Positions 24,322-46,346 of a DNA stretch of 64,000 nt are shown here, one piece after another. The translations under genes were made by a program, and so were the position numbers. This stretch comes from Angustibacter luteus. GTDB lineage: Bacteria; Actinomycetota; Actinomycetes; Actinomycetales; Angustibacteraceae. The stretch spans positions 806,001-870,000 of the forward strand of contig NZ_BAABFP010000005.1 of assembly GCF_039541115.1 (NCBI RefSeq), read 5' to 3'. Position 1 is the first letter of the stretch, and each line of letters begins with the position of its first letter. The notes beneath the pieces are model-generated. The model did not search any database. It saw only the letters and a list, made by a program, of their open reading frames with translations, and had not been told where the DNA came from.

Positions 24322-24347
24322 CCCTCGTTAGATCGCTCGCTGCGACC

Positions 24348-25856: not shown

Positions 25857-25907
25857 CTCTTCACGGTCCGGCAGGCGATGGCAGCTTCTCTGAAAACCTT
25901 CGAATCA

Positions 25908-25929
25908 AGGCTAGCGCGTGGCACCGACA
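25908..25929 (-). promoter_or_regulatory. PafBC/RecA-NDp-type DNA-damage promoter motif
   Basis: Minus strand TGTCGG-TGCCACGCGC-TAGCCT, an exact TGTCGG-N10-TA-N3-T match upstream of the MFS gene. Confidence 0.55.
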
Positions 25930-26315
25930 GGCCACGATGGGATATCTCGACGGAATACCGATAGGACTCCTGCCACCGTCATCTTTCATCGGTCCGCTGG
26001 GGCCTGCGGCAACTGATATGACGACGCGAGACCGAGCCTCTCGTACGTGGGGCAACGCCTCGTTGCTGGAACTGACCGTCACCCGCCCCGCGCCACCCGG
26101 TCAGGCCCACTTCGGGGCCGCCTGGACGAGCGCAGCACGGCCGGCGGTCGTCCCCAGCCTCGGCCCCTGCATCAGCTCCCGCTTCGGCGTCCGCGAGTGG
26201 AGCCACCAGGGCAGGATGCGTCTCGTCGTGGACGTCCACCAGCCGGGGTCCGCCAGCCGACGTGTCATACCGCCGGTGTTTCGCAGGGCCGCCCGGAGCC
26301 CGCGCGGTGGGAGAG

Positions 26316-27662: not shown

Positions 27663-27676
27663 GTCTCCCCCTCAGA

Positions 27677-29095
27677 TCACTTCACAACAGCCGCGATGGC
27701 CAGGCCGACTGCGACCACGCTCACCCAAGAGACCAGCATTGGGATGGTGAAGGAGTGCCAGACCGGTACCTGGCTCAGCTTCGTCGTCCCGGTCTTGTCG
27801 ATGGCCACCGCGGCGATCTGCGAACCGTTGGCGGGGAACAACCAGACGCCGACCAGGGACGGCCACATCGCCGTGATGATCGCCGGTGACATGCCGGCGG
27901 CCAGTGCGATCGGGACGAGCGTGCGGGTGGTGGCGGACTGGCTGGTGGTCAGGCCGCAGACCAGGAACAGCGCGACCGCGAGGAACAGCGGGTGATCCTT
28001 CACCACCGACCCCATCCAGTCGATGATCTGCGGGTTTCCCGCGATGAAGGTGTCGGCCATCCACGCGATGCCGAACAGGGCGATCGCCGCCACGATCCCG
28101 GCCGAGAGGAGCGGCTGCTCGAGTACCTTGGCCGGTGCGATCTTCCCGACCAGCAGGATGATCAACGCGACGGTGAACATCGCGAGCTCGATGACGACCG
28201 TCATGCTCAGCGGCCCGGCGTCCTCGCCCGTTCCCACGGTTGGCCGAAGGTCCTCGAACAGGCCCATGATGACGATGAAGGCGACACCGGCCAGAAAGAT
28301 CAGCGCACTGGTCCGCCCGTGGGCCGCGGCTTCGGCGGTCTCTTCAGCGCTAGGCGGCTCGGCTGTTGCAACCGAACCCACTGACGTGCGCGCCGCGGCC
28401 GCCCGCGCCGCGGACTGGGTCTCGGCGGGCAGCCCCGCCATGACCTCCTCCGGCACCTCGACCTCACCCGCGGCGACCAGCCGAAGGTACTCGGGGTCGT
28501 CCTTGAGCTCGGCGCCGATCCGTTGCTGCACCAGCGAGGTGACGATGCAGGCCACGATGGAGGCGGGGATGGTGATCATCAGGATGTCGGTCAGCGTGAA
28601 GTCGTCCGGCAGGAGCGTCAGGTAGGCCGCCATCGCCGCCGACACCGGGCTGGCGGTGATGCCGAGGGCCGAGGTCACGGTCGAGGATGCCAGCGGGCGC
28701 TCGGGCCGGATGCCGTTGCGGTAGGCCGTTTCGTTGATGACGGGGATGAGCGCGAAGTAGATGTTCGACGTGCCGGCTCCGACAGTGAAGACGAAGGAGA
28801 CCAGCGGCGCGACGAGCGTGATCCGCTTCGGGTTGGCCCGGATGATCCGGGAGGCGATGGACACCAGCCAGTCGATGCCACCGGCTGCCTGCATGGCCGA
28901 CGACGCGGTGATGACCGCGATGATGATGAAGAACGCGTCAACCGGTGGGGTTCCGGGGTCCATCTGGAAACCGAAGACCAGCACGGCCGTGCCGGCGACG
29001 CCCCACAGGCCGAGACCGATGCCCCCCATCCGCACGCCGAGGAAGATCGCGGCGAGGACAACAAGACCTTCGAGAGCAACGACGAAGTTATCCAT
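27677..29095 (-). CDS. DcuA/DcuB-family C4-dicarboxylate transporter
   Basis: GVRMGGIGLG, MQAAGGIDWLV, IRPERPL, GITASPVSAA, SQSAT, DKTGTT...HSF. Confidence 0.85.
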   Translation of the reverse strand: MDNFVVALEGLVVLAAIFLGVRMGGIGLGLWGVAGTAVLVFGFQMDPGTPPVDAFFIIIAVITASSAMQAAGGIDWLVSIASRIIRANPKRITLVAPLVSFVFTVGAGTSNIYFALIPVINETAYRNGIRPERPLASSTVTSALGITASPVSAAMAAYLTLLPDDFTLTDILMITIPASIVACIVTSLVQQRIGAELKDDPEYLRLVAAGEVEVPEEVMAGLPAETQSAARAAAARTSVGSVATAEPPSAEETAEAAAHGRTSALIFLAGVAFIVIMGLFEDLRPTVGTGEDAGPLSMTVVIELAMFTVALIILLVGKIAPAKVLEQPLLSAGIVAAIALFGIAWMADTFIAGNPQIIDWMGSVVKDHPLFLAVALFLVCGLTTSQSATTRTLVPIALAAGMSPAIITAMWPSLVGVWLFPANGSQIAAVAIDKTGTTKLSQVPVWHSFTIPMLVSWVSVVAVGLAIAAVVK

Positions 29096-29276
29096 GCGGT
29101 GCCGTCCCAACGCTTGTCGCAGGAAACCCGCAGCCCCACTGTGATCTCATCCAAAGGTGAAATCAAGAGGCTGGGCCCACCAAGATCAACATCGCGAGAA
29201 CCGTTGACGCGACGCGTAGGCTGACCGCGATTTCCCTGGTTCGTGGCGCGGCTGAGAGAACGGATCGACTGGTGGG

Positions 29277-30779
29277 ATGGCTCAGGTGAGTGGGGCGACG
29301 GCGGGCGCGGGACGCGCCAGCGGGGTTCTCGCCGCGACGTGCCTGTCCACGTTCGTGGTGAACGCCAACACGTCCGCCGTGAGCATCCTGCTGCCCGCCA
29401 TCAGCGAGGACACCGGCATGGACGTCTCGACCCTGCAATGGGCCGTGACGGGGTACTCACTCGTCGGTGCCGCGGTGATCGTGACCTCGGGCTCCCTGGG
29501 CGACGTCTTCGGGCGCAGACGCGTGTTCCAGCTCGGACTGTTGCTGTTCGTGGCGTCCTGCATCCTCATCGCCCTGTCGACCACCGGCGGCGGGGTGATC
29601 GCCGGCCGACTGATCCAGGGCGCGGCGGGCGCCACCATCCTGGCCTGCGGGCTCAGCCTTCTCTCCGTCGCCAACAGCGGACAGGCGCAGCTTCGCGCGG
29701 TCTCTCTCTGGGGCGCCGCCGCCGCTGTGGGCGCCGCGGCTGGCCCCCTGCTCGGCGGCCTCCTGGTGGACCTGACCGGCTGGCAGGGGCTGTTCTGGGT
29801 TGACGCCGGGATCGCGATCGCCTGCATCGTCCTGACGGCGGTAACCGTCTCGGAGTCGCGGGACCCGCAGCGGTCTCGCTCGATCGACTACGCGGGCACC
29901 GTTCTCGTCGCGCTGACGTTGGCACCACTCATCCTCGCGCTGAGCAAGGGCAGCGACTGGGGCTGGTTCTCGGCAGCCACGCTGGGATGCCTGGCCGTCT
30001 CCATCGCGTCGGGGTTCGCGTTCGTCGCCGTGGAGAAGCGCGTGTCCGTCCCGCTGCTCGACCTTGCGCTGCTGCGCAACCGGATCCTGGTCGGCTCGAC
30101 CATCGCCATCCTCATCGGCGCCGGCACGATCAACGCGCTGATGTACCTGCTCAGCCTGTACTTCCAGGACCCCTCCACCTTGGACTTCAGCCCGCTCGAG
30201 GCGGGTCTGGGCACCCTGCCAGCCACCGTCGGCCTCGTCGTGGTGGCACCACTGATCCCCCGCCTCGCTGCGAAGCTCGGCGGCCGTCAGGTCATCGGCG
30301 TGGGCTTCCTGGTCACCACGGTCGGGTTCGCCGCGCTTGGCCTGGTGGACTCGTCATGGAAGTACGCCGCGTTCTTGCTGCCGCTGGTCGCGGTCGCGGT
30401 GGGGATGGGCTTGTCCAACGGGCCGGCGTCGTCCGCGTCCACCGCCTGCGTCCCCGCGAACCAGGTCGGGTCCGCTTCGGGGGTATCGAACATGGCCCGT
30501 TACGTCGGCGCTGCTGTGGCAACCGCGTTGGCGGCCAGCATCTTCAGCTCGGTCATCGCCGACCGCACGGCCGAAGGCAACCCACCCGCCGACGCTCTCG
30601 CCTCGGGACTGGCGACCGCGTCCTGGGTGATGGCCGCCTTCAGCTTCGTCGGTGTGCTGATGGCCGTCGTCATCGGACGCCACCGCGCCGCGCGCGGCAG
30701 CCTGGGCGACTCCGCGGCCGCGGCGGCAGCGCACACGCACACGCTGCCGACCACGGCGACGGCCTCACCCACCGAGTAG
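29277..30779 (+). CDS. DHA2-type MFS transporter
   Basis: GSLGDVFGRRR, GRLIQGAAG, GPLLGG, about 14 TMs. Confidence 0.88.
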   Translation: MAQVSGATAGAGRASGVLAATCLSTFVVNANTSAVSILLPAISEDTGMDVSTLQWAVTGYSLVGAAVIVTSGSLGDVFGRRRVFQLGLLLFVASCILIALSTTGGGVIAGRLIQGAAGATILACGLSLLSVANSGQAQLRAVSLWGAAAAVGAAAGPLLGGLLVDLTGWQGLFWVDAGIAIACIVLTAVTVSESRDPQRSRSIDYAGTVLVALTLAPLILALSKGSDWGWFSAATLGCLAVSIASGFAFVAVEKRVSVPLLDLALLRNRILVGSTIAILIGAGTINALMYLLSLYFQDPSTLDFSPLEAGLGTLPATVGLVVVAPLIPRLAAKLGGRQVIGVGFLVTTVGFAALGLVDSSWKYAAFLLPLVAVAVGMGLSNGPASSASTACVPANQVGSASGVSNMARYVGAAVATALAASIFSSVIADRTAEGNPPADALASGLATASWVMAAFSFVGVLMAVVIGRHRAARGSLGDSAAAAAAHTHTLPTTATASPTE

Positions 30780-30815
30780 AGGGCACGGCACCCGACCTAC
30801 GTCGAGCGCCTGAGG

Positions 30816-31217
30816 TCAGGCGAGCGCCTTGGCCTTCAAGGCGTCGAACTCGGCCTGCGTGATGGTCCCGGCGTCGAGCAGCGCCTTGGCGCTGGCGATC
30901 TGCTCGGTCGGTCCCTGGGACGAGCTCGCCACGTGCTTGATGTACTTCTCCTGCTCCGACCGCTGCTGCGCGGCGGCCGCCGCCTGCCGCTCACTCATGC
31001 TCCTGCCGCGGGCGATCAGGTAGATCAGTGCGCCGAACCACGGCACGAAGACGAGCAGGATGACCCAGCCCGCCTTGCCCCAGCCGCTGAGGGACTGGTC
31101 GCCGAACAGGTCCCACAGGCAGCGGAACCACACCATCAGCGCCGCGATCCAGATGAAGAACCAGAAGCTCCACAGCAGGACCTCGCCGAAACTCGTCGTC
31201 ATTGCGTCCATGGTCAT
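30816..31217 (-). CDS. PLDc_N + SHOCT domain membrane protein
   Basis: DLFGDQSLSGWGKAGW...GALIYLIARG; AKALLDAGTITQAEFDALKAKAL. Confidence 0.85.
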   Translation of the reverse strand: MTMDAMTTSFGEVLLWSFWFFIWIAALMVWFRCLWDLFGDQSLSGWGKAGWVILLVFVPWFGALIYLIARGRSMSERQAAAAAQQRSEQEKYIKHVASSSQGPTEQIASAKALLDAGTITQAEFDALKAKALA

Positions 31218-31350
31218 TCCTCTTTGAGTTGGACCAGGCGGCGTCCAATGAGCGTCGCCTGCACAGCGTCCCAGCACAGCCCGGCCAGATCACGCAAGAC
31301 GTGGTGGCGTGTCGAGACCTACCTGCGGGGGGGGCTCTACAGTGCCGGGC

Positions 31351-32526
31351 ATGACCGAGAGCGGAACGGGCTGGCGGGTAGTTGACGGTGTGACCACGAC
31401 GTGGTTCGACGCGTCCTCGCTGAGCGAAGGCGCCGCCTTGGCCGGGCGCGTCGTGGAGCTGTCGGCCGACATCGTGGTCGACCTGCGGGCGACCGGCGTC
31501 CGGGTGCGCCTCGACTCGGACGAGTACGCCGATGCAGTCTCGGCAGCCGCGCGGGTTCTCGGGCTGCCCCCCAACCCGGCCGTGCTGCAGTCCCTCAGCG
31601 TCGTGGTCGAATCCGCCAACCCGCTTGGGGTGCGGCAGTTCTGGCAGGGCGTGCTCGACTACGCGCCCGGGGAGGACGGCGGGTTGACGGACCGGTTGCG
31701 TCGCGACCCCGCGATTCGTGTCCGGCAGTCGACCGAGCCCCGGCCGTTGCGAAACCGCCTCCACCTCGACGTCGTGCGACCGGCTGCGGCGGTCGAGCAG
31801 GCGAGTCCGGGTGAGGCATCAGGACCGTACGGGGTCTGTCACAGCGACCCCGACGGCAACGAGGTCGACCTGGTCCCCGGCGCGGCACTCGGCGAGAGTG
31901 TCGGGACCGCCGACTGGCAGGCGGTGTTCAGCGCGATGGCGTGCTACCGCATCACCTCGCCCACGCAGCAGCGTGAGCTGGCCGCCGCGGCAGCGGCACT
32001 GGCAGATGACGCTGGCTTCCCGCTGCTGGTCGACCTGCGGCCCGGGCTCGTGATCTTCGACAGCGGCAAGGACCAGGCGGACGACGACGCGCATGGCCTC
32101 GAGCTCGACTTCACCGACCTCGCGGGACGTCTCCAAGCCGCTGCCCGCGAGCTCGGAGCCACCGCCGATCCGGGGCTGCCGCGCTTCGCTCAGCTCTTCT
32201 TCGACGCTGCCGACGTCGACGCGGTGCGCGCGTTCTGGATCGCCGCACTCGGATACGCCCAGGATCGGCGAGCCGGGGTCAGCGACATCTACGACCCGCG
32301 GCGGTTGAACCCGGTGCTGGTGTTCCAGGAGATCGACGCGTCCGAGACCGAGCGGCGTCGGCAGCGCAACCGCATCCACGCCGAGCTCGCGGTGCCGTCG
32401 GACGTGGCGCAGGCGCGCCTCGCCACGGCGGTCGCAGCCGGTGGCCGGCTCCTTGACGAGTCGGCGGGTCGCTGGCGGATCGCCGATCCTGAAGGAAACG
32501 AGCTGGTGGTCGTCAGCGGGGCCTGA
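31351..32526 (+). CDS. Duplicated pterin-dehydratase-like/VOC (glyoxalase) protein
   Basis: Two repeats with FW...LxY, RNRLHLD/RNRIHAE and DPDGNE/DPEGNE; TACAGT -10 7 nt upstream. Confidence 0.8.
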   Translation: MTESGTGWRVVDGVTTTWFDASSLSEGAALAGRVVELSADIVVDLRATGVRVRLDSDEYADAVSAAARVLGLPPNPAVLQSLSVVVESANPLGVRQFWQGVLDYAPGEDGGLTDRLRRDPAIRVRQSTEPRPLRNRLHLDVVRPAAAVEQASPGEASGPYGVCHSDPDGNEVDLVPGAALGESVGTADWQAVFSAMACYRITSPTQQRELAAAAAALADDAGFPLLVDLRPGLVIFDSGKDQADDDAHGLELDFTDLAGRLQAAARELGATADPGLPRFAQLFFDAADVDAVRAFWIAALGYAQDRRAGVSDIYDPRRLNPVLVFQEIDASETERRRQRNRIHAELAVPSDVAQARLATAVAAGGRLLDESAGRWRIADPEGNELVVVSGA

Positions 32527-32590
32527 CCTCGCGCTGCCGTCGGCCCGCGCGGTGTCCGCGGGGTGCAGGCTCTCACCTGACTCGAGCGCC

Positions 32591-33115
32591 TCAGAACCTG
32601 AAGCGGGTCAGACCTCCTGGCTCCGTTGCCAGCACGACCGTCGCAGAGCGTGGCTCGATGCGATACACGTTCCACGGCGGTGGTCCCTGGGAGGGTGCAT
32701 TGAAAGGGGCGGTGATGCCGGTCTCGCTCTTGTCCAGCTCCGCCGGCCAGCCATCGTCCGCCCACGCCTGCGCGATGCGCGCCAGCACGCCCGGTTCCGT
32801 CACCTGGGCGGCGTCACCTTCGACCACGACGTCTCCCTCGGGGATCGACAAGGCGATCGAGCATCGCGGATCGCGCGTGACGTTGCGGCCCTTGCGCGTG
32901 CCCGAACCCGTCTGGAACCAGAATGCGTCGTCCAGCCACATGGCCCCGACCGCAGTCACGTGCGGGCTGCCGTCCTCGTTGAGCGTGCTCAGCCAGGTCG
33001 TTCGCGCGTTGTGCGCGTCTCGAGCCGGCGCCGCCCGCGCGGTGAGCTTGTCGGCAACCGCACCCCAGCTGACCGGCGGCAACCCCTCGGCCTCGCCCAG
33101 GTTGATGATCTCCAC
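32591..33115 (-). CDS. Pyridoxamine 5'-phosphate oxidase-like (flavin/F420-binding) protein
   Basis: TWLSTLNEDGSPHVT, RKGRNVTRDPRC, VVVEGDA. Confidence 0.85.
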   Translation of the reverse strand: MEIINLGEAEGLPPVSWGAVADKLTARAAPARDAHNARTTWLSTLNEDGSPHVTAVGAMWLDDAFWFQTGSGTRKGRNVTRDPRCSIALSIPEGDVVVEGDAAQVTEPGVLARIAQAWADDGWPAELDKSETGITAPFNAPSQGPPPWNVYRIEPRSATVVLATEPGGLTRFRF

Positions 33116-33446
33116 AGCCGTCCCTCCATTCTCCGCGGACACCGTTACACGATGGTTCGACAGAGGTCAGACCCGCCGGGACCGGCGAAGTCATCGCCCA
33201 TGACCGCCTCGCTCCTGTGCATCAGAACGCGCGCCGTTCCGTGTCGGCGCTGGCGGACCGTTCTGTTTGGTGACCCTGTCGGTGCAGTCGCCCGGGGGCC
33301 CCATGACCCTGTTCAAGCCCGGACAAGCGCAGAGGAGCTGCCCGGCGGGACCAGGCTCCACGCCGCCCCGGCGCTGATACGTGGGGCGCGTTGACCGATG
33401 ATGTCCTGGCCGATCCTTCTGACCGACGACGACGTAGGTGCCTGCA

Positions 33447-33893
33447 ATGAGCGCGACCCGCCCCGCTCCCCGTCCCTGCACGCCGAGCGACCACGAGTGG
33501 CTCTTCCAGCTGCACGACGCGGCCCATCGCGATCTCGTGGAGCGCGCGTACGGTCCATGGGAGGACGGACAGCAGCGCGCCTTCTTCACGCCGCTGCTCG
33601 ATGAGTTCGACGTCTTCCTGTTTGAGCACGAGGGCGTACCGGTCGCCTCGGTGTACTTGGGCGACCGCGACGGTGACGTGTGGATTGAGCTGGTCGAGGT
33701 CGACCCGAGGCATCAGGGCCGTGGGATCGGCACCGCCGTCCTCTCGTGGACCGTTGAGCGCGCTCACACCCAGGGCAAGGGCGTCCTCATGCAGGTCCAC
33801 CGGGTCAATGCGGACGCCCGGCGGCTGTACCTGCGCGAGGGGTTCGAGCAGGTCGACCAGAACGACACCCACGACTTTCTGCGCCACCCGTGA
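33447..33893 (+). CDS. GNAT acetyltransferase
   Basis: VDPRHQGRGIGT, NADARRLYLREGF. Confidence 0.85.
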   Translation: MSATRPAPRPCTPSDHEWLFQLHDAAHRDLVERAYGPWEDGQQRAFFTPLLDEFDVFLFEHEGVPVASVYLGDRDGDVWIELVEVDPRHQGRGIGTAVLSWTVERAHTQGKGVLMQVHRVNADARRLYLREGFEQVDQNDTHDFLRHP

Positions 33894-33908
33894 CTGGGTA
33901 GGACCGGC

Positions 33909-34598
33909 ATGCTCACAGAGCACCACCACTCAGCGACAGCGTGGCTGTTCGATTTCGACGGAACGTTGACTGACTACGACACCGCTGACCGGGCCGCTGT
34001 CGAGACACTTCGGCTCCGCTACTTCGCCGACGTACCTGCCGACGAGTTCCATGCTGCATCGGTGACGGCACGAACCGCGTTCTATCGGACGTGGGCAGCT
34101 GGCGACGTCAGTCGAGGTCTCGATCAGTCCCGTGTCGCCGCTCTGTGCAACCGCTACGACCGGGCCAATCGCACCGATCAGGCGGTCGACACCTACCGCG
34201 CTGCGCTGCTGGCTGAGACACGACCAGTGCGGGGTGCTGAGGCCCTGTTCGCGCATTTGGCCTTGTCCTACCGGCTGGGCATCGTGACGAATGCCTACGA
34301 CGCCGCTGCGCAGCGTGCCCGCATCGTGGCGACGGGACTCGACCGGTGGGTCGAGGTTGTGGTGGTGGCGGTTGAGGTCGGCTACTTCAAACCGGATCCC
34401 CGCATCATGGTTGCCGCCGCCGAGGGGTTCGGTGTCAGCCCTGCCGAGTGCGTCTACGTCGGGGATTCGCACGAGTTCGATGTCGCCGCTGCAGACGCGG
34501 CGGGGATGCATCCCATCTACATCGGGTCTGAGAACGGCCCGCTCGATGCGCCGTGCTTTGCCGACGTGCAGGAGCTGCACCAGTGCCTTGGGACATGA
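33909..34598 (+). CDS. HAD family hydrolase
   Basis: FDFDGTL, IVTN, KPDPRI, YVGDSHEFDVAAA. Confidence 0.88.
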   Translation: MLTEHHHSATAWLFDFDGTLTDYDTADRAAVETLRLRYFADVPADEFHAASVTARTAFYRTWAAGDVSRGLDQSRVAALCNRYDRANRTDQAVDTYRAALLAETRPVRGAEALFAHLALSYRLGIVTNAYDAAAQRARIVATGLDRWVEVVVVAVEVGYFKPDPRIMVAAAEGFGVSPAECVYVGDSHEFDVAAADAAGMHPIYIGSENGPLDAPCFADVQELHQCLGT

Positions 34599-34714
34599 GC
34601 GCGGCCAGTCACATTCCGAGCGAACGGTCCTGCTCCAAGGATCATTGACCACCCCCTGGCGGATGCCCCGCGCACTGCCACAATCGAGTTGGGCCCCGAC
34701 CCACAGTCGAGAGG

Positions 34715-35593
34715 ATGACCATGCTCAAGCTGAACAACGGCGTCGAGATGCCGCCGATCGGCCTCGGCGTCTTCCAGACCCCACCGGAGGAGACGCGAGC
34801 CGCCGTGGAGGCGGCGCTCCAGACGGGCTATCGCCACATCGACACGGCAGCGGCATACGGCAACGAGCGTCAGGTCGGCGAAGCCATCCACAAGTCCGGC
34901 GTTGCTCGCGACGAGGTCTTCATCGAGACCAAGATCTGGATCAGCGACTACGGCTACGGGCAGACCCTCCACGGCTTCGACAAGAGCGCCGCCAAGCTCG
35001 GCGTCGACCAGATCGACCTGCTGATCCTGCACCAAGCACTGCCCTCCGACTTCGACAAGACCCTCGAGGCGTACCGGGCGCTGGAGACACTGCTCGCAGA
35101 CGGCAAGGTCCGCGCGATCGGGGTCAGCAACTTCATGGCCGACCACCTCACCGCCCTGCTCGAGAAGGCGAAGGTCGTCCCAGCGGTGAACCAGCTCGAG
35201 GTCCACCCCTACTTCCAGCAGCGCGAGGTCCAGGCGTTCGGCGCCGAGCACGGCATCCTCACCCAGGCGTGGTCGCCCATCGGTGGCATCACCTTCTACC
35301 GCGACGGCAGCCACGGCAGCACCCTGGAGAACCCCCGCATCGGTGAGATCGCCGCGACGCACGGCAAGACGCCCGCCCAGGTGATGCTCCGCTGGCACCT
35401 CCAGCAAGGTCGCTCGGTCATCCCCAAGTCCACCAAGCTCCACCGCATCGCCGAGAACTTCGACGTCTTCGACTTCGACCTCACGGCCGACGAGCTTGGC
35501 GCCATCGACGCCCTCGACACCGACCGGCGCGGCGGCCCCGAGCCATCCGACATCACGCTGGAGAACTTCGGCCGACCCATCCCAGAAGCGTGA
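34715..35593 (+). CDS. Aldo/keto reductase (2,5-DKG reductase-like)
   Basis: GYRHIDTAAAYGNE, IGVSNF, NQLEVHPY, IPKS. Confidence 0.93.
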   Translation: MTMLKLNNGVEMPPIGLGVFQTPPEETRAAVEAALQTGYRHIDTAAAYGNERQVGEAIHKSGVARDEVFIETKIWISDYGYGQTLHGFDKSAAKLGVDQIDLLILHQALPSDFDKTLEAYRALETLLADGKVRAIGVSNFMADHLTALLEKAKVVPAVNQLEVHPYFQQREVQAFGAEHGILTQAWSPIGGITFYRDGSHGSTLENPRIGEIAATHGKTPAQVMLRWHLQQGRSVIPKSTKLHRIAENFDVFDFDLTADELGAIDALDTDRRGGPEPSDITLENFGRPIPEA

Positions 35594-35821
35594 GCAGCAG
35601 CTCCACGCAGCCGGCGCCCCTCGCGACGACACCGGGCCGAATCGCCTGACGTACCTGCGAGGCGAGTCAGCGCCCGGTCGCGGCGGTATGACGCAGCTGT
35701 CGAACGCCGGCTTGTACTGAACTTCGTGTCGATCGGCGGACCCGACGTTCGTCCGTGGCCTGTTTCGAGGGCCACGACTCCGACTACGTCGAGGGCACTG
35801 CCTCCCCCTGAGCCAAGCGCG

Positions 35822-35879
35822 TCGAGTGACGCGGAACCGTCGTCCCACAGGTGGCAGACGACGTTTCCGCGTCACTCGA
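35822..35879. repeat. 23-bp inverted repeat (1 mismatch, 12-nt loop); terminator or REP-like hairpin
   Basis: TCGAGTGACGCGGAACCGTCGTC / GACGACGTTTCCGCGTCACTCGA, 11 nt after the ABC permease stop. Confidence 0.8.
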
Positions 35880-35890
35880 TGGTCGGGCGG

Positions 35891-36700
35891 CTACTTGACC
35901 TCGGACCGCCGGACGAGGAACAGGCCGACGGTGAGTGGGAGGACGATCCAGAGCAGGCCCGACACGCCTACGTTGGCCCACTGCTCGCCGGTCAGGTTGC
36001 CATCGAACAGGAATCCCTGGGCGTAGTTGAAGTCCACCCACGGCTGGATGTCGGCGAACCACTGCTGGCTCGTCGCCAGCAGGCCGGTCAGCCCGGCCAG
36101 CACGAAGCCGTAGACGAAGTAGGCCACGACTGCGCCGGCCGAGTTCCGGATGAGCAACCCGAGCATGAAGCCGATCAGCAGCCCGAGCACATTCGCGAGA
36201 ATGATCGACAAGGCCTGGTTCAAGGAGATGTCCCAGACCGTGTCCACCCCGGCGATCGCGGAGCCGACGATATTGCCGATGGCCCCGATGCCGAGCGCGA
36301 CCACGATGGACGCCGCACCCAGGACGATCGAGTTGATCATCTTGGCCATGATCACACGGGACCGGTTCGGGACGAGCGTGAACGTCGTCAGACCGCTGCG
36401 CTGGCTCCACTCGCTGGTCACCGAGAGGATCGCGATGATCGGCAGGATCACCACCATCGGGAAGCCGATCGCCGCTCCGAACGAGTCGTAGGTCAGCTCG
36501 TTTGTCGGCGCGAACACGATGACCGCGCCGGTGGCCAGGACGGCGCTGATCCCGATGCTGGCGACCAGCCAGAACCCTGATCGGGTGTCGAACATCTTGG
36601 TGAGCTCGACCCAGAGCACCCGGGTGAACGGGATCTTGGCCGGGACCGGCCGGGTCGGGCGGACCCGGCCCACGGTGGGTGCTGCGGTCAAGGTGGTCAT
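35891..36700 (-). CDS. ABC transporter permease
   Basis: ELTKMFDTRSGFWL, SVTSEWSQRSGLTTFTLVPNR, 6 TMs. Confidence 0.88.
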   Translation of the reverse strand: MTTLTAAPTVGRVRPTRPVPAKIPFTRVLWVELTKMFDTRSGFWLVASIGISAVLATGAVIVFAPTNELTYDSFGAAIGFPMVVILPIIAILSVTSEWSQRSGLTTFTLVPNRSRVIMAKMINSIVLGAASIVVALGIGAIGNIVGSAIAGVDTVWDISLNQALSIILANVLGLLIGFMLGLLIRNSAGAVVAYFVYGFVLAGLTGLLATSQQWFADIQPWVDFNYAQGFLFDGNLTGEQWANVGVSGLLWIVLPLTVGLFLVRRSEVK

Positions 36701-37596
36701 GCTGCTGCTCCTTCTCGGGATGTGTCTGCGGTGAGCTCGAGGAACATCTCCTCGAGCCCGGCGCCGTCGGCGGTCCGCAGCTCGCGCAGGGGTACGCCGG
36801 CAGCGTGGGCGGCCTTGCCGACCTCGTCGGGGTCGGCGTCGGCGCGGAAGCCGTCGTCGCCCATCGGGACGACCTTGATCCCGGACGCGGCCAGGGCGCT
36901 GCCGAGATCGGCGACCGCCCCGGCTCGGACGATCGTGCCGGCGGAGGCGAGCAGCTCGTCCTTGGTGCCCTGCGCCACGATCCTGCCGTTGCCGATGACC
37001 ACCAGGTCGTCGGCGATGACCTCGATCTCGTGCAGCAGGTGCGAGGAGAGCAGCACGGTGCCGCCACGGTTCGCGAACCCACGCAGCAGCTCACGCATCC
37101 AGCGGATGCCCGCCGGGTCCAGCCCGTTGGCGGGCTCGTCGAGGATCAACACCTCAGGGTCGCCGATCAGTGCGGTCGCGATCCCGAGTCGCTGGCGCAT
37201 CCCGAGCGAGTAGTGACGAACCCGGCGGCCCGCCTCGGTCTCGGTCAGGCTGACGGTGTCGAGCATCTCGTCCACTCGCGACAGTGGAAGGCCCATCGTG
37301 CGAGCCGCGATGCGCAGTGTCTCCCGGCCAGTACGGCCGGCGTGCTGTGCCGACGCGTCGAGGAGGACACCGACCTCGAGGCCCGGGTTCGGCAGGTCGG
37401 CGTACCGCCGGCCCAGCACCGTGGCCTGCCCGGCGCTGGGCGGCGTGAGCCCGACCATCACCCGCATGGTGGTCGACTTGCCGGCGCCGTTGGGGCCGAG
37501 GAAGCCGGTGACCCGGCCCGGTCGGGCCGAGAAGGTGACGTCGTCGACGGCCCGCAGACCTCCGTACAACCTGGACAGCTCAGTCACTTTGATCAT
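36697..37596 (-). CDS. ABC transporter ATP-binding protein
   Basis: GPNGAGKST, YSLGMRQR, LDEPANGLD, SSHLL; ATG at 37596. Confidence 0.93.
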   Translation of the reverse strand: MIKVTELSRLYGGLRAVDDVTFSARPGRVTGFLGPNGAGKSTTMRVMVGLTPPSAGQATVLGRRYADLPNPGLEVGVLLDASAQHAGRTGRETLRIAARTMGLPLSRVDEMLDTVSLTETEAGRRVRHYSLGMRQRLGIATALIGDPEVLILDEPANGLDPAGIRWMRELLRGFANRGGTVLLSSHLLHEIEVIADDLVVIGNGRIVAQGTKDELLASAGTIVRAGAVADLGSALAASGIKVVPMGDDGFRADADPDEVGKAAHAAGVPLRELRTADGAGLEEMFLELTADTSREGAAA

Positions 37597-37977
37597 GCGT
37601 CCAGCGTCGCCGACCGACCGGTCGCGCGCATCGGGGCTGAGACCCCACCCGCCCCTGACCGGACCCTGACGCGTGTTCGGGGTCACCCCTGACTCCTGTC
37701 CGCCCAGGAGCGACAGGTCGTGGTGACCTGTCGGCAGATGCATCTGAGGCCCTGGCGGACCCGGCCTCGTCCATGCAGCGCTTCGCGGCGGAGTGACGCA
37801 GGCCCGGATCCCGGCAGATCTTGTTGATCGCGGCCGGTCGTGCGTCCCGGTTGCCCTGTCAGCCTTGGCGTCTGCCGAGTGGCCATCGTTGACAGCGATG
37901 CCCGTTCGATTGATCGCGTGAAGGATGAGGGAACGTAGGCCTCGCGCGGGCACGCCCCCACGGGGGATCCTGGGGCC

Positions 37978-39180
37978 GTGGACACCCAGTGTGTGGTGGT
38001 GGGGGCCGGGGCGGCGGGTCTGGCGGTGAGCCGGGCTCTGTCGGAGGTTGGCGTCGAGCATCTGGTCCTTGAACGGCACGACGTGGCCGATACCTGGCGG
38101 CGCCAGCGGTGGGACAGCTTCACGCTGAACACGCCTGACTCGATGAACGACGGGCTTCGCGCAGGGCCGGGCCTGGGGACGACATGCCCGCGGGACGAAG
38201 TCGTCCAGCTGTTGACCGAGCAGGCGCAGGCTCTCCCGGTTCGTCCTCGCACGGCGGTGACGGCGGTGGACAGCATTCCCCCGGGCTTCCTGGTCTCCAC
38301 GCCGGATGGAACCCTGTCCGCCCCGACCTTGGTCTTGGCCTCTGGCCTGCTGAACGTGCCTCGAAGGCCTGCCCAAGCGGGGCTCGTTGCGCCACGGGTG
38401 CATCAGCTGCACGCCTCTGACTATCGATCTCCCAGCCAGCTGCCTGATGGCGCGGTGCTCGTCGTGGGAGGAGGACAGTCCGGGTGCCAGATCGCCGAGG
38501 ACCTGGCCCTGGCCGGACGCACGGTCTATCTGTCCACGAGCCGGGTGGGCCGCATCCCGTGGCTCTACCGAGGACGTGAGTCGCTTGCCTGGCTGGTCGA
38601 CTGCGGCTTCTGGGATCAGCGCCCGCAGGACCTGCCCCACCCGACCGATACGGCACTGACCGTCCCACTGCTGGCAGGGGGACGCAGCCTCGACCTGCGC
38701 ATCTTGTCCGGTCTCGGCGTGCGGCTGGTAGGCCGCTTCGCCTCGGCCGACGGCGAGACGATCGGATTCGAAGGTTCCCCTTCGGCGTACGCGGCCCAGG
38801 CTGACGACGCTTGGGCCAGGCTCAGGTCCCTGATCGACCACCACATCGAGGAACACGACATCGTGGCGCCCGACCCTGCAACGGCGGACCGGCCGGGCGG
38901 TCCGGTGCCAGATCCCGGCGCGGCCGTCCTCGATCTGCACTCAGCGGACGTGACCACGCTGATCTGGAGCACCGGTTTCACGGGTGACCTGTCCTGGGTC
39001 AATCTTCCCCTGTTCGGTCCAGACGGCCGACTCGAGCACGACGGCTGCGCAGCCCCCTGGCCCGGCCTCTGGTACGTGGGATTCCCCTGGCTGACCCGGC
39101 GATGCTCCGGCATCTTCCACGGGTTCTCCCGCGATGCCCAAGACATCGTCCACGGAGTGGTCCACGAGCTCGACCGCTGA
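37978..39180 (+). CDS. Flavin-dependent oxidoreductase/monooxygenase (CzcO-like)
   Basis: VVGAGAAGL, WDSFTLNTP, HASDYRSP, VVGGGQSGCQIAEDL, WSTGF. Confidence 0.87.
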   Translation: MDTQCVVVGAGAAGLAVSRALSEVGVEHLVLERHDVADTWRRQRWDSFTLNTPDSMNDGLRAGPGLGTTCPRDEVVQLLTEQAQALPVRPRTAVTAVDSIPPGFLVSTPDGTLSAPTLVLASGLLNVPRRPAQAGLVAPRVHQLHASDYRSPSQLPDGAVLVVGGGQSGCQIAEDLALAGRTVYLSTSRVGRIPWLYRGRESLAWLVDCGFWDQRPQDLPHPTDTALTVPLLAGGRSLDLRILSGLGVRLVGRFASADGETIGFEGSPSAYAAQADDAWARLRSLIDHHIEEHDIVAPDPATADRPGGPVPDPGAAVLDLHSADVTTLIWSTGFTGDLSWVNLPLFGPDGRLEHDGCAAPWPGLWYVGFPWLTRRCSGIFHGFSRDAQDIVHGVVHELDR

Positions 39181-39290
39181 CCGGCGGTCCGCTCGTCCAG
39201 CCGCTTGGGAGTCAGATGGAAGTGCCCCCGAAGGGACGAGGCACAGCGCCAGCAGCGGGACCTGCCGGGTGCATGCGGCTACATGACGCA

Positions 39291-39351
39291 CGCCCTCATC
39301 GCGGCAGATCCGGGCGAGCGTAGCCGCCCTCAACGCGGCAGATCCGGGCGA
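39291..39351 (+). repeat. Tandem 34-bp-period repeat containing copy 1 of a 48-bp element
   Basis: CGCCCTCATCGCGGCAGATCCGGGCGA (39291) and CGCCCTCAACGCGGCAGATCCGGGCGA (39325). Confidence 0.9.
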
Positions 39352-39363
39352 TCGGACCCGGCT

Positions 39364-40296
39364 CTATGCGCCGAGGGCGGGGAAGGTCCAGTCGCCGGTC
39401 AGGATCTCTGGGCGCGGGCGATAGAGGCGGACGATGTAGTTCCAGCCGTCAGTGATGGGCAGGGCGTTGTTACCCTCGCCGCCGAAGCGCACCGTGACGC
39501 TGCCGTCGTTGTTGCGGGCGGCGGTGATGTTGTTCACGCTGTACGCCCCCTGCTCGTTGGGTTCGAAGAACCCTTCGGCGTTGTAGACCGAGATCGACCA
39601 GAAACCGTCGACGGGAACGTCGCCGACGGTCAGGTCGTACTCGCCAACCGGGAGGTTCGGGAAGACACCCACGTATGTCGCTTCGGCGTCCGGTAGGCCG
39701 CCCCACCCGGCAGCCGAGCCGATGAGGTGGTGCACAGCATCGACGTGCTCGCGGCGGCCGAACATCTCCGAGAACGCACTCAGGTCGGAGGCCAGAGCGA
39801 GCAGCGCGTTGCGGGTGCGGTCGAGGCTCTCGGTGTCGTAGTCGGGCAGTTCGAACGTCCGACCTGACGTGGCCTGCAACGCGAACCCGTCCTGGACGGC
39901 GGCCACGGCGGCGAGATCGTTGGGGTTGGTGGGATCGACGAGCGTGCGGGCGGCGACGACGACATAGGGGGTGTCGAACTCTTCGACGGTGAGTTCGTAG
40001 CGACCGGCGTCGTGAAAGACCTTGTTGATGTAGTGGTCCTCGTTGACGATCATCACCGACAGGTACCGCTCACCGGAGTCCGGGACGGTGAGGGTGGCGC
40101 CCTGTGAGATGTCGACGACTGCGAAGCTGTAGAGCGTGTCACGGTTCATCCGGATCACGGTCTGCTTGTCGATCTCCGCGGGCTCGCGGTTGTGCGAGAA
40201 CACGTTCACCCCGCCGGCGTCGCGCTGCAGGCCAGCCATCATCCGGTGGGTCTCGGCCCGCTTGAAGTTGTCAGCGTTGACCTTGATCTGCGTCAT
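39364..40296 (-). CDS. DUF1254/DUF1214 domain protein
   Basis: QTVIRMNRDTLYS, AAGWGGLP, VPVDGFWSISVYN, GWNYIVRLYRP; TAGTGT -10 7 nt upstream. Confidence 0.85.
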   Translation of the reverse strand: MTQIKVNADNFKRAETHRMMAGLQRDAGGVNVFSHNREPAEIDKQTVIRMNRDTLYSFAVVDISQGATLTVPDSGERYLSVMIVNEDHYINKVFHDAGRYELTVEEFDTPYVVVAARTLVDPTNPNDLAAVAAVQDGFALQATSGRTFELPDYDTESLDRTRNALLALASDLSAFSEMFGRREHVDAVHHLIGSAAGWGGLPDAEATYVGVFPNLPVGEYDLTVGDVPVDGFWSISVYNAEGFFEPNEQGAYSVNNITAARNNDGSVTVRFGGEGNNALPITDGWNYIVRLYRPRPEILTGDWTFPALGA

Positions 40297-40532
40297 ATCG
40301 TCGACACTACTGACCGCCGTCACGGCCAATTCACCCCCACCGGGTGAAACCAGCCGGGGGTCATCACCCAGCAGATGCCGCCGTCCGCTCATCGGCACGA
40401 CCGTGCGGCGATCGGCCGCAGGTCCCGTTGTTGTAGTTGTCCCTTTCGCTGGGCTCAATCCGGCCAGAGCACAGGTCGACGCCTCTTGGAGTTCTGCCGT
40501 GCTGCTCGTTCGTGGGCCACTACTCTGCTCGC

Positions 40533-41033
40533 GTGCGTTGGGCGAACGAAGCTGAGCTGCTTGCGGCGTTGTCCACGTGGGAGCCCCTCCCCGATGAGGA
40601 TGACCCTCGTTGGGACGATGACGAGGTCTGGCGGGACGCGGAACGGTTGATCCAGGCGGCCGACGCGGCGGGAGACGCCGGTTGGCGGGAAGCTGCCGTC
40701 CGTGTTTTCGAGCATGCTGCCGACTGGGACCTGAATGGCATGATGCCGCACATCCGCCACGGACCTGAGAGGGCTTACCCCGAGGACAGCGGCTCACAGG
40801 AGTTCGCGCATCGACTGGAGCAGCTCGCCGGGCACGTGCGGGCGGGAACCCGGCTGTGGATCGTCAGGGAGCTGGGCTTACTACGGCAGTTGTCGAGCCT
40901 CCCGGTCATCCTGGAACGACTGACCGATCCGCACCCCCGCGTGGCAGACACGGCTGTCGACTCACTGCACATGCTCGCTCAGGTGTATGCCGAGGCCGTC
41001 ACGGAGTTGTGGAGTCGCGAACTGGGAGCTTGA
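40533..41033 (+). CDS. HEAT-repeat-like hypothetical protein
   Basis: RELGLLRQLSSLPVILERLTDPHPRVADTAVDSL; TACTCT -10 6 nt before GTG 40533. Confidence 0.6.
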   Translation: MRWANEAELLAALSTWEPLPDEDDPRWDDDEVWRDAERLIQAADAAGDAGWREAAVRVFEHAADWDLNGMMPHIRHGPERAYPEDSGSQEFAHRLEQLAGHVRAGTRLWIVRELGLLRQLSSLPVILERLTDPHPRVADTAVDSLHMLAQVYAEAVTELWSRELGA

Positions 41034-41091
41034 TCGCACCTCACAGCGGGCGATGAACGCCGCGGGCCGGTGAGGACGTGACCACACCCCA

Positions 41092-41139
41092 CGCGGCAGA
41101 TCCGGGCGAGCGTAGCCGCCCTCAACGCGGCAGATCCGG
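41092..41139 (+). repeat. Copy 2 of the 48-bp element (identical to 39300-39347)
   Basis: CGCGGCAGATCCGGGCGAGCGTAGCCGCCCTCAACGCGGCAGATCCGG. Confidence 0.92.
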
Positions 41140-41164
41140 ACGCTCCGCGTGACATCCTTCGCGC

Positions 41165-41443
41165 GTGCAGATCCGCTGGTTCAAGCGACGCTGGGACGAG
41201 ACCCGTGGCGACGGCTTCGACTCATGGGGCGCGGCGACGTACTTCTTCGAGGTCACGAAGGAAGGATGGCCGTCGCGTCAGATTGAGGTCTACGACAGCG
41301 GTCCCACGCTTCGCTACGGCCCTGACCATCTGGAGGACGAGTACGGCCGGCTCGGGCAAGCGCAGCTCGACGAGCGCGAGGACTGGTCCGATTGGGCCAT
41401 TTCATCTGACGAGTTCGAGAACATGTGGTCTGGGGACGCGTAG
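41165..41443 (+). CDS. Small acidic, Trp-rich hypothetical protein
   Basis: 92 aa, YFFEV...RQIEVYD...ISSDEFENMW; CATCCT -10 6 nt before GTG. Confidence 0.7.
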   Translation: MQIRWFKRRWDETRGDGFDSWGAATYFFEVTKEGWPSRQIEVYDSGPTLRYGPDHLEDEYGRLGQAQLDEREDWSDWAISSDEFENMWSGDA

Positions 41444-41491
41444 GTCACTCGGATCGGCATGACCGCGCACGATCCGAGGCATGAAAGGGCG

Positions 41492-41923
41492 CTACGAAGG
41501 TCCTCCGGGGAAGGTCGCGGGTCCACCGCCGGGAAGGGAAACCCACCTGCGTCCGGAGACCCCGGTCAACTGCCAGGCTTCGTACTGCTCGTCGTGAGGA
41601 ACGTCGAGCATCAGTCCTGACTCGAACACAAGTCGTAGCGCACCATCCTTGAATCCCACGCTCACCAGGAGCTGCTGCCCGACCAGGGACATCAAGACCT
41701 CGGATGTCCAGACCGTGCCGTCCGCCATGCGCGTCACCACAGCAGTCTCAGTGCCCGGTGCGGAGACCGCCCGTACCGTCGCGGCGGCCTCAATCGACAA
41801 TACGGACCCTCCCGCGAAGTTCAGCACGACCACAAACTCGTGGACGTCAACCGACTCCAACGCACGCTTGCGAAGGCCGAGCCACCACCTGTCATCAAGT
41901 TCCTGCTCGACCTCACTTCCCAT
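41492..41923 (-). CDS. DUF6188-like hypothetical protein
   Basis: DGALRLVFESG...VPHDEQYEAWQL...WVSLPGGG. Confidence 0.7.
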   Translation of the reverse strand: MGSEVEQELDDRWWLGLRKRALESVDVHEFVVVLNFAGGSVLSIEAAATVRAVSAPGTETAVVTRMADGTVWTSEVLMSLVGQQLLVSVGFKDGALRLVFESGLMLDVPHDEQYEAWQLTGVSGRRWVSLPGGGPATFPGGPS

Positions 41924-42072
41924 GGCCGCGAGTGTGACACCGGACGTGGCCTCACACGACCACTGACGCGACCCCCACGACCGCACGCCATCCGCGGCAG
42001 ATGAGTGCGTTCACACCGCGTGTCGTCACCCTTCTGCTCGGTAGGCAGCGGTGCCTCCGAGATGATGCCGTC

Positions 42073-42894
42073 ATGACCTCGACCACCGCGTTTGACCGTG
42101 TCGGCCACATGGTCCGCGTCCCCGTGGCACTGGCTGGCGAGAAGCATCGGTTCTTGGTCGACTCCGGCATCGGCGTCACCGTTGTCTCGCCCCAGATCGC
42201 CGCCCGTTCCGATGTACGCCTTACGGGAGAGACCTTCACCGGCCGCCGCATGTCCGGGCAGGAGCTCACACTCCCGATCGTGCAACTCCCGGAGCTCAGG
42301 CTTGGCGACTACTCGATCCACGGGCATCGTGCCGTCGTCGCAGACCTCGGTCCGGTCGATGGTCCGACTGGGTTCGCCGGAATCTTGAGCCCGCGGTTCT
42401 TTGCGGGAAACGCCGTTACGACCGACCCCGACGCGATGAGCCTGACCGTGCGCCCCGTGGCCGGATTGGATGAGCAGGGCTATGTCATTCCACTCCAGAT
42501 GCGCGCGGAGGGCCCTGCCCTGACCCCCTTCGCTGTCCTGATCCTGCCCAGCGGACGGGAGATCGAGGTCGAGGTCGACACCGGTTCCCAGAACACCATC
42601 CTCGACGTGCAGTACCTGGACGAGTGCGGAGTGGATCTTGCGCACGCATCGGTCACCACGACGACGGGCGTTGACGAGACGGGGCATGAATGGACACGAC
42701 ACTGGAGCACGATCGCCGGCCAAGTCCACCTCAAGGGCGCACCCGAGACCGCTCAGCCCGAACCGCGAGTGCAGTTCCAGGAAATCATTCACGACGGACT
42801 CATTGGCACCGACTACCTTGAGCGCTACCGCGTCACCCTCGATGCAGTCGGGGCCCGCCTCATCCTCTCTCCGCGAACCACAACAGCGCCCTAG
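42073..42894 (+). CDS. Two-domain retropepsin-like aspartyl protease
   Basis: FLVDSG and VEVDTG catalytic motifs, AGIL and DGLIGTDYL. Confidence 0.8.
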   Translation: MTSTTAFDRVGHMVRVPVALAGEKHRFLVDSGIGVTVVSPQIAARSDVRLTGETFTGRRMSGQELTLPIVQLPELRLGDYSIHGHRAVVADLGPVDGPTGFAGILSPRFFAGNAVTTDPDAMSLTVRPVAGLDEQGYVIPLQMRAEGPALTPFAVLILPSGREIEVEVDTGSQNTILDVQYLDECGVDLAHASVTTTTGVDETGHEWTRHWSTIAGQVHLKGAPETAQPEPRVQFQEIIHDGLIGTDYLERYRVTLDAVGARLILSPRTTTAP

Positions 42895-43012
42895 AAGCGC
42901 ACGACCATCCGCGCGCACATCGGCATGAGAGTGAAACTGCGGCGCCCGACGCGGGAAGTGACGCGCCCTCCCGTGCAGATTCGCAGGTCTACTGGCACCC
43001 ATACTCGGCGCT

Positions 43013-43171
43013 GGTCACCTCCGCACAGGAATCACCCGAAGCGAGGCGCGCGACGTGCTCTGGACCGACAACGCCGCCGAGCAGTACGGGCTTCTCGTCC
43101 TCGAGCGAGAGTGGAGCTCGCGTCGCGATGGCTCCTGGATCGCCGAAGCGCAGATTGCTGCCCTGCTCTAG
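43013..43171 (+). pseudogene. C-terminal remnant of a TetR-family regulator
   Basis: Hand translation GHLRTGITRSEARDVLWTDNAAEQYGLLVLEREWSSRRDGSWIAEAQIAALL*; no HTH or start found upstream. Confidence 0.55.
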
Positions 43172-43328
43172 CCAAGCGGCGCCAGATCGGCAGCAGGCAC
43201 GCCCAGGCATCGTCGGGGTGTATCGCCGTAGCCAGTCGATCCTGCGTCCATCTGGACGGAAGGACGCACGCCCCGTGCATGCGTGGATCGCAGTGCGCTG
43301 AGCTGATATGCGCCTGACCGCATGCAGC

Positions 43329-43362
43329 AAGGAGCCCCGACCCAGTTGGGTCGGGGCTCCTT
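43329..43362. terminator. Intrinsic terminator hairpin downstream of nrdJ
   Basis: AAGGAGCCCCGACCCA-gt-TGGGTCGGGGCTCCTT. Confidence 0.85.

Positions 43363-43436: not shown

Positions 43437-46346
<2,910 letters not shown>

Follow-up and report, generated by a model that had tools for sequence, protein, structure and literature searches.

Directly repeated 26-bp sites, gene cassettes, and a Xer-like recombinase in Actinomycetota: a candidate counterpart of the integron

In the genome of the actinobacterium Angustibacter luteus, the spacers between a row of genes to the left of nrdJ share a short recurring sequence, which raises the question of what these repeats are and which enzyme might act on them. 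The window analyzed here is the whole 64,000-nucleotide stretch G000:C5:806001-870000 (positions given without a contig name are those of the window) of a 4.16-Mb genome with 72% GC. A first-pass annotation, made from these letters alone, described the row as an array of gene cassettes whose repeats would be integron-analogous recombination sites served in trans, since the window encodes no recombinase. Both statements are supported: there is no recombinase in the window, DNA blocks shared between arrays end at the core of the repeat, and a specific recombinase clade has this core upstream of its gene, in an attI-like position.

The most far-reaching reading of the data, to which we give a probability of about 0.6, is an independently evolved counterpart of the integron in Actinomycetota. 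A phage-related Xer-like recombinase would act on 26-bp double-stranded sites; its own gene would be a cassette that can be excised, enters genomes for a time, and leaves arrays behind when it goes; mixed arrays joined by 26-bp adaptor units would be the work of two recombinase clades, each with its own core; and chromosomal genes would be captured together with their promoters.

Structure of the site

The repeat unit described in the first-pass annotation is real but is larger than the 9-mer GCGGCAGAT that it had named. As judged from 422 distinct sites in other genomes, the A site is a 26-bp dyad in which two loosely mirrored 10-bp arms surround a nearly fixed 6-bp core, (G/T)CGGCA (a 10-6-10 arrangement). 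Copies of GCGGCAGAT are found on the + strand at 39301, 39335, 41093, 41127, and 41994, as claimed, and a sixth copy that had not been listed, at 56868, is on the - strand. The 9-mer is more frequent than composition predicts (shuffled sequences contain 1.1 copies on average, and 1 of 100 reached 6), although as evidence its number taken by itself is modest. When the window is left out and a matrix is trained on the other islands of this genome, it detects 9 sites of at least 10 bits with cores from 39301 to 42920, all on the + strand, and 3 scattered matches in the remainder of the 64 kb. The shorter copies previously listed at 37733, 37813, 40371, 42911, and 42975 are all present, but those at 37733 (-13 bits) and 40371 (-11 bits) score poorly, the one at 42975 (2 bits) is weak, and the string at 42911 is the left arm of a site with its core at 42920. 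The latter had been missed, as had the sites at 40392, 41454, and 41476 and two sites of a sister type (35680 and 37785), the first of which moves the left end of the array from 37700 to 35680.

The imperfect hairpins reported for several copies do not exceed chance: folds of 14 sites are no better than those of shuffled sequences (z from -1.9 to +1.0). Complementarity between the two arms within a cassette (5.34) is close to that of shuffled pairs (5.27 +/- 0.09). A model in which the site works as a single-strand hairpin was rejected, as there is neither cognate arm covariation nor a fold signal. As the first-pass annotation had stated, classical attC sites are missing, and no pair of RYYYAAC...GTTRRRY boxes 40 to 150 bp apart is found on either strand between 35600 and 43400. 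Because the arms are not complementary and the folds are not above those of shuffles, the site would seem to be recognized as double-stranded DNA with a one-way core. Searches against Rfam (E <= 0.5) gave no match in the 30- to 48-kb part of the window or in two other islands.

Sites also occur in closely spaced runs, with spacings of 20 bp (12 cases), 22 bp (25 cases), 24 bp (12 cases), and 34 bp (160 cases). The 34-bp units form tandem runs of up to ~30 near-identical copies that are 90 to 98% alike between genomes (L023:9979-10625, L074:9975-10922, L078:9779-10453, L022:9909-10404, and L043:9645-10216); such units are too short to circularize.

Orientation and distribution of the sites

A matrix built from the context of the 9-mer gives 56 matches in the entire genome; 51 of these are on the + strand and all within four islands (C2:1099k, C4:463-466k, the window, and C8:545-563k), each co-oriented. 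With the refined matrix, the islands (32.7 kb) contain 82 sites on the + strand and none on the - strand, against 0.022 per kb per strand outside them; this matrix was trained on the + strand, which makes the 82:0 ratio partly circular. The genome-wide scan proposed in the first-pass annotation returned co-oriented islands, and its extension to relatives returned arrays in many Actinomycetota. In GTDB genomes, 70 stretches match a 21-mer of the site, mostly in Actinomycetota (Nocardioides, Kribbella, Cellulomonas, Humibacillus, Angustibacter, Marmoricola, and uncultured members). Six non-actinobacterial or unlabeled records contain 0 or 1 site each, and one Limnocylindria record contains 3. 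In 1.1 Mb of other loci, which are kin rather than independent, the majority strand has 515 sites and the opposite one has 25. Fourteen further regions have 5 to 26 sites each, and in 11 of the 14 every site is on the same strand. A strict site pattern, covering one arm type only, matches 54 of 400 genomes of the class, mostly once, and a 20-mer of the site is present in 1 of 40 relatives. Among plasmids, only a single distant match was found. In sequencing runs, where the best share was 0.07 and the four runs examined did not contain the organism, pieces 95 to 97% similar to the protease gene of the window were short and carry no weight. A rule based on the replication strand was rejected: judged from dnaA, dif, and skew, the lagging strand has three A arrays and the leading strand has one.

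Shared units end at the core

Blocks of at least 97% identity that occur in different contexts end no more than 14 bp from a core in 21 of 25 cases, whereas a shifted control gives a mean of 1.2 and a maximum of 5; at 93% identity, 32 of 45 ends are near a core (control, 1.7). These counts leave out 202 tandem-repeat matches, 3 IS110 blocks, 5 matches among DUF1254 loci, and 19 ends close to the end of a locus. A 4,082-bp block is common to L063 and L069, cassettes of 300 to 350 bp recur between the arrays of G290, and the same cassette is found in different arrays of one genome. These comparisons of sequence support the view that the repeats are recombination sites, the joints of a cassette system. 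At the junction of L076 and L082, only GCA is common to both partners, which places the probable crossover in or beside these bases. A junction shared by L076 (~10074-10100) and L083 (~4115-4150) keeps only the GCA of the core after an identical unusual left flank and is possibly a secondary target or another type of site.

Among 119 units, the median length is 525 bp; by a crude choice of open reading frame (ORF), their genes are in the same orientation as the sites in 50 units and opposite in 61, and 8 units are without an ORF. Pfam domains were detected in 22 of 78 cargo proteins (out of 111 picked), including glyoxalases, NUDIX, a dehydrogenase, and several DUFs; immunity-type families (SUKH, SMI1-KNR4, Barstar, and Imm8) account for 4 of the 78. 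A 198-bp noncoding unit with a core at both ends and an internal inverted repeat is present at G000:C2:1100059-1100256 and C8:379425-379621 (94% identity), with a partial copy at C8:567000-567085; this unit could represent a small RNA or a cassette without cargo.

Two cargo genes of the window have relatives among 351 genomes of one genus. Both homologues of the gene for the Trp-rich protein (L169 and L170) belong to arrays, where a site immediately precedes the gene and the neighbors are different. Among the 28 homologues of the DUF1254 gene, 2 have an adjoining site and 26, including the closest one (88%), have none. For the other four cargo genes, the same threshold yielded no DNA match in these genomes.

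A tyrosine recombinase associated with the sites

An Xer-like tyrosine recombinase family of 303 amino acids (YRa) recurs near the sites in 10 genome groups; a Tn554-like recombinase pair, considered as the recurring enzyme, is not what recurred there. The PF00589 domain was found on YRa homologues, and R155, K181, H245, R248, H271, and Y280 are invariant in 7 sequences. We take these to be the catalytic-type residues, and this R-K-H-R-H-Y set together with PF00589 places YRa in the tyrosine recombinase superfamily. YRa scores ~120 bits with the XerC/XerD models (cutoffs, ~330) and 47 to 61 bits with the integron integrase model TIGR02249 (cutoff, 265); it aligns continuously to XerD, without an insertion, and its match to IntI4 is limited to the C terminus. 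The protein search found the family in 55 of 401 genomes of the class (a tally that takes in the unpublished G063), and at E <= 1e-60 the recombinase has matches in more than 5,900 protein clusters. Some integrases on viral contigs belong to the wider family, but no member of the cassette-linked clade was detected there, the best match being 53% identical.

When recombinase loci were picked by the protein alone, blind to the motif, a site was found within 200 bp in 12 of the 12 YRa loci (at least 64% identity) and in 2 of the 18 loci of more distant relatives (30 genome loci), in line with the linkage to a recombinase that the first-pass annotation proposed to test. In metagenomes (80 loci in all), 39 of the 60 loci with both flanks have a site, 68 kb of recombinase gene sequence contains none, and the other sites of these loci face away from the strand of the gene in 122 cases versus 25. 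None of the 19 viral relatives is flanked by sites.

In 55 of 86 YRa loci, the exact core is found 30 to 95 bp upstream of the gene on the opposite strand, and in 1 of the 86 it is on the same strand, compared with 71 and 78 of 860 (8 to 9%) in in-gene controls and 6 of 39 for distant relatives. Of the 16 pairs of loci whose flanks match on the recombinase side, 11, from four independent groups, diverge no more than 2 bases past this core; the rest comprise 2 duplicates, 2 pairs for which the anchor was a chance core further ahead, and 1 pair that diverges past the next core. The arm toward the recombinase is specific to the gene, and the first cassette varies. YRa and its upstream core are thus arranged like an integrase and its entry site, as at attI. 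A core also follows the YRa stop codon within 50 bp in 35 of 78 cases. Because of this downstream core, the mid-array position of the YRa gene in G656 and G264, and the occurrence of a 1,039-bp recombinase unit (99.8% identity) in two contexts, L046 and L193, the recombinase gene is itself a cassette of ~1 kb. Taken together, YRa-type recombinases probably act on these cassette sites.

One YRa subgroup (L046, L069, L083, and G221:C9:202-234 kb) differs in that the two sites beside the gene are directed into it and the neighboring arrays point toward one another. In G221, there are four recombinase copies, three of them apparently frameshifted, and the orientation switches.

A sister clade and its sites

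A second well-supported clade, YRb, is 40 to 43% identical to YRa. In 6 of 7 YRb loci, a different core, GCGGCG, is located ~105 to 125 bp upstream on the opposite strand; in the seventh, the 5' end was not located. The corresponding B sites were scored with a matrix built on 11 seeds. The only member of the family in A. luteus is a frameshifted YRb gene at C8:369k, surrounded by six B sites that face away from it. In the 102 loci with at least 3 A sites, B sites are co-oriented with them, 18 to 0, and a B site followed by an A core 26 bp further on occurs three times in the A. luteus genome. The window has B sites at 35680 and 37785 and a weak one at 39275.

The array next to nrdJ

In the window, the 9 A sites span 39301-42925, and the B sites stretch the array leftward to 35680, over a pair of ABC transporter genes. 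All sites described here are on the + strand. The left end is a B site at 35670-35695 (core GCGGCG at 35680; 30.6 bits when the window is kept out of the training set). The genes for an ABC permease and ATPase (35891-37596, - strand; Pfam ABC2_membrane_4 and ABC_tran) form a 2.1-kb unit between two B sites; within this unit, 3' of the permease gene, there is a 23-bp inverted repeat (96%) at 35822-35879 that is probably a terminator. The second B site (core 37785, 22.9 bits) and, 26 bp on, a weak A site (core 37811; 12.2 bits, or less than 10 with the window-out matrix) occupy 37775-37826. Next is the gene for a flavin-dependent oxidoreductase (37978-39180, + strand; Pfam Pyr_redox_3, FMO-like), whose left-hand site is therefore weak, followed at 39265-39350 by a triple junction of a weak B-like site (39275) and A sites at 39301 and 39335, which delimit gene-less units of 26 and 34 bp. 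A DUF1254/DUF1214 protein (Pfam) is encoded at 39364-40296 on the - strand. The palindrome upstream of its gene (~40331-40347) is likely an operator and is also present, as judged by eye from five homologue flanks, in site-less homologues; the fact that these five share the upstream palindrome of the window copy suggests that the gene was captured with its promoter region.

The A site with its core at 40392 (19.4 bits) and a poorly scoring GCAGAT copy (-11 bits) 24 bp before it make up 40358-40407 and precede the gene for a HEAT-like protein (40533-41033, + strand), whose HEAT_2 match of 27.1 bits is just under the Pfam cutoff of 27.7; this apart, the gene labels proposed earlier hold by Pfam. 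Two A sites (41093 and 41127; 41083-41142) enclose a 34-bp gene-less unit. A 92-amino-acid Trp-rich protein (41165-41443, + strand) has no Pfam match, DUF6881 being a lead only, and is followed by two A sites 22 bp apart (41454 and 41476, with 12.8 and 17.5 bits; 41444-41491). The gene for a DUF6188 protein (Pfam; 41492-41923, - strand), an A site at 41984-42009 (core 41994, 22.3 bits), and the gene for a clan AA aspartyl protease (42073-42894, + strand; Pfam Asp_protease_2) come next. The last A site (core 42920, 18.0 bits) is trailed by degenerate site-like strings at 42951 (seen by eye) and 42972 (2.4 bits), the whole covering 42910-42987. Thus, five genes (for the DUF1254, HEAT-like, Trp-rich, DUF6188, and aspartyl protease proteins) have a site on both sides. 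As noted in the first-pass annotation, the cargo is richer in A/T-ending codons than nrdJ: the GC content at third codon positions is 0.74 to 0.82 in five cargo genes and 0.89 in the DUF1254 gene, versus 0.95 in nrdJ.

To the right of the array is the 3' remnant of a regulator gene (43010-43249, + strand), presumably of the TetR type; an intact copy of this gene, at G000:C8:375411-375650 near the island with the broken recombinase, is 90% identical to it. Neither end of the remnant coincides with a scored site. A hairpin recognizable by sequence (43331-43360) lies 3' of nrdJ (43437-46346, - strand), and homology to the same-genus genome G003 begins near it, at 43319. To the left of the array, the lower-GC stretch 24000-35600 is without either type of site. 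Blocks 26328-29096, 30816-31220, and 31334-32522 recur, reordered, in the island left of nrdJ in G003 (G003:C1:2709000-2749000). The comparison of this side of nrdJ across four same-genus genomes, suggested earlier, did reveal variable gene content but neither an array nor an empty site, and the blocks shared with G003 end at gene ends, not at sites. Because the DNA left of nrdJ differs in all four genomes and is unrelated to that of the window, this spot is an insertion hotspot. Just left of nrdJ, L107 (G002) and L108 (G001) have a gene for a putative nucleotidyltransferase of an anti-phage type.

Proposed mechanism and alternative explanations

In the proposed scheme, YRa would bind the arms on double-stranded DNA and exchange strands within the core. 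Recombination between directly repeated sites would excise a cassette as a circle, which could reenter at the recombinase's own site or at any other site, and the one-way core would keep the sites co-oriented. Genes would be captured as DNA with their own promoters, which would account for cargo in both orientations. Gene-less units of 20 to 34 bp would result from deletion or unequal exchange. The array in the window would be an orphan left after loss of the recombinase cassette, and it may be dormant, since A. luteus has no intact gene for the likely enzyme.

Several observations weigh against this scheme. IS110 elements and phage-type integrases are each found near sites in 10 genome groups, as often as YRa; 21 of the 60 metagenomic recombinase loci have no flank match at 11 bits; and five close YRa genes have an upstream site directed toward the gene. 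A. luteus itself has no YRa gene and only the frameshifted one of the sister clade. In one set of array-bearing genomes, 5 of 5 (two of them single-contig) lack the family and have host-type Xer matches only, and in five further ones, YRa is intact in 2, a fragment in 1, and absent from 2. The overlap between the family and the strict site pattern is weak (10 of 54 among the 400 genomes, p = 0.29; 4 of 12 for genomes with two or more pattern matches, p = 0.07), while within one genus, it amounts to 4 of 7 versus 1 of 17 (p = 0.014). Finally, no array and no empty site were seen at the nrdJ locus of the four same-genus genomes (3.6 kb only for G001). The weak overlap would be expected if the recombinase cassette is gained and lost repeatedly, but a host enzyme would account for it too.

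In one alternative, the joints are genuine but are processed by host XerC/XerD or another unlinked enzyme, in the manner of the Acinetobacter pdif modules, with YRa being only frequent cargo. This is suggested by the Xer-like spacing of the site, by the weak co-occurrence just mentioned, and by G290, a single-contig genome that has only host-type Xer and yet contains arrays with cassette copies of 94 to 98% identity. However, the host dif-like site (C5:482339, near the switch in GC skew) shares neither arm with the A site; pdif modules, as described in PMC6160057, usually have inverted sites, whereas those in the arrays are direct; the recombinase-side arm stays with the gene while the first cassette varies; and a sister recombinase clade has a sister core of its own. 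We regard this explanation as unlikely, although more plausible than the next two.

The sites could also be elements of the REP/BIME type or target scars of IS110 that pile up in variable islands, with the genes between them never moved. Tandem runs of the 34-bp unit would fit this idea, as would the position in the core of 13 of the 14 IS110 copies whose right end was detected, which run into its right half, and the targeting of REP elements by IS621 that is described in PMC11208160. Elements of one IS110 group insert at one position of the core (L027, L070, L043, L046, L072, L017, L022, L173, L175, L187, and L188); the search for left ends required the motif and was hence circular. On the other hand, an element that splits the site uses it and does not make it; searches of the A. 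luteus genome for a Y1 transposase (PF01797), IS110, a resolvase, or an IntI above the cutoff found none; the sites are one-directional, island-confined, and nonfolding; and gene-bearing blocks end at the cores, which largely refutes this explanation and leaves it very improbable. Least probable of all is that small integrative elements, each independent of the others, inserted in tandem at a single chromosomal target and were never reshuffled. Some arrays adjoin phage-type integrases and a relaxase-like match (G656 and G290), and sites are found on both sides of YRa, but most units are ~0.5 kb and contain one gene and no enzyme, arrays lie at unrelated loci, and individual cassettes are shared between arrays within a genome. 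The difference between this explanation and the proposed YRa scheme is mainly one of degree. In L184 (G656:C81:45000-64999), a 26-site array with an intact YRa adjoins an integrase and a relaxase-like match, because of which arrays may travel on mobilizable elements.

Comparison with known systems

On this reading of the sequence data, the arrays work in a manner resembling integrons without being integrons. As in integrons and CALINs, co-oriented sites alternate with units that mostly hold one gene, some arrays have no enzyme, and the cargo is similar. In layout, though not in sequence, both systems also have a tyrosine recombinase gene that points away from a short core, with variable first cassettes beyond it. 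In both, the site is targeted by IS110-family elements (IS1111 elements target attC, according to the title of a reference in PMC11208160). In contrast to integrons, the enzyme is far below the IntI cutoff and lacks the IntI insertion; the fixed 26-bp site has no attC boxes and no significant hairpin; the cargo is in both orientations; and the recombinase gene is a mobile cassette in its own right.

The rAID-1 arrays of Bacteroidales are also integron-like without IntI: a XerD-family recombinase goes together with arrays of genes, motifs repeated between the genes, and cargo of the immunity type (bioRxiv 10.1101/471110). In the description of rAID-1, a 5' recombinase gene is followed by codirectional genes, and close homologues of the recombinase are reported in Bacteroidales only (bioRxiv 10.1101/471110). 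By that description, the arrays studied here differ: their recombinase gene is divergent or mid-array, genes run both ways, and immunity families are infrequent. Acinetobacter plasmid pdif modules have two-armed sites with a 6-bp center, modules in different contexts, and site-targeting insertion sequences (PMC6160057). Host XerC/XerD binds those sites, which are dif-like and in most cases alternately oriented (PMC6160057), whereas the array sites are direct repeats, have both arms unlike host dif, and are tied to their own recombinase clade. The simple phage tyrosine integrases (Gp33, PDB 5vfz; the IntBrujita subgroup, described in PMC8138268) are similar two-domain proteins of ~300 amino acids, but no member of the cassette-linked clade was seen among viral contigs and the viral relatives are without sites. 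Unlike REP/BIME elements with RAYT, the arrays come without a PF01797 match, and their sites are confined to islands, to one strand, and to nonfolding sequences. Our literature search, which covered few subscription papers, found no description of such an array system.

Implications

Why whole phyla lack integrons and how cassettes first arise are open questions. In the IntegronFinder 2 survey (PMC9024848), no complete integron is recorded in Actinobacteria, a gap that the arrays would fill with different parts. The system is common, as the number of recombinase clusters indicates, and it escapes tools based on attC. Gene capture becomes testable with those cassettes that have ordinary genes without sites as their closest relatives. 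A 303-amino-acid enzyme with 26-bp directional sites, possibly of two specificities, could serve genome engineering in high-GC hosts. If the proposed explanation is true, soil actinobacteria would have a gene-collecting system of their own.

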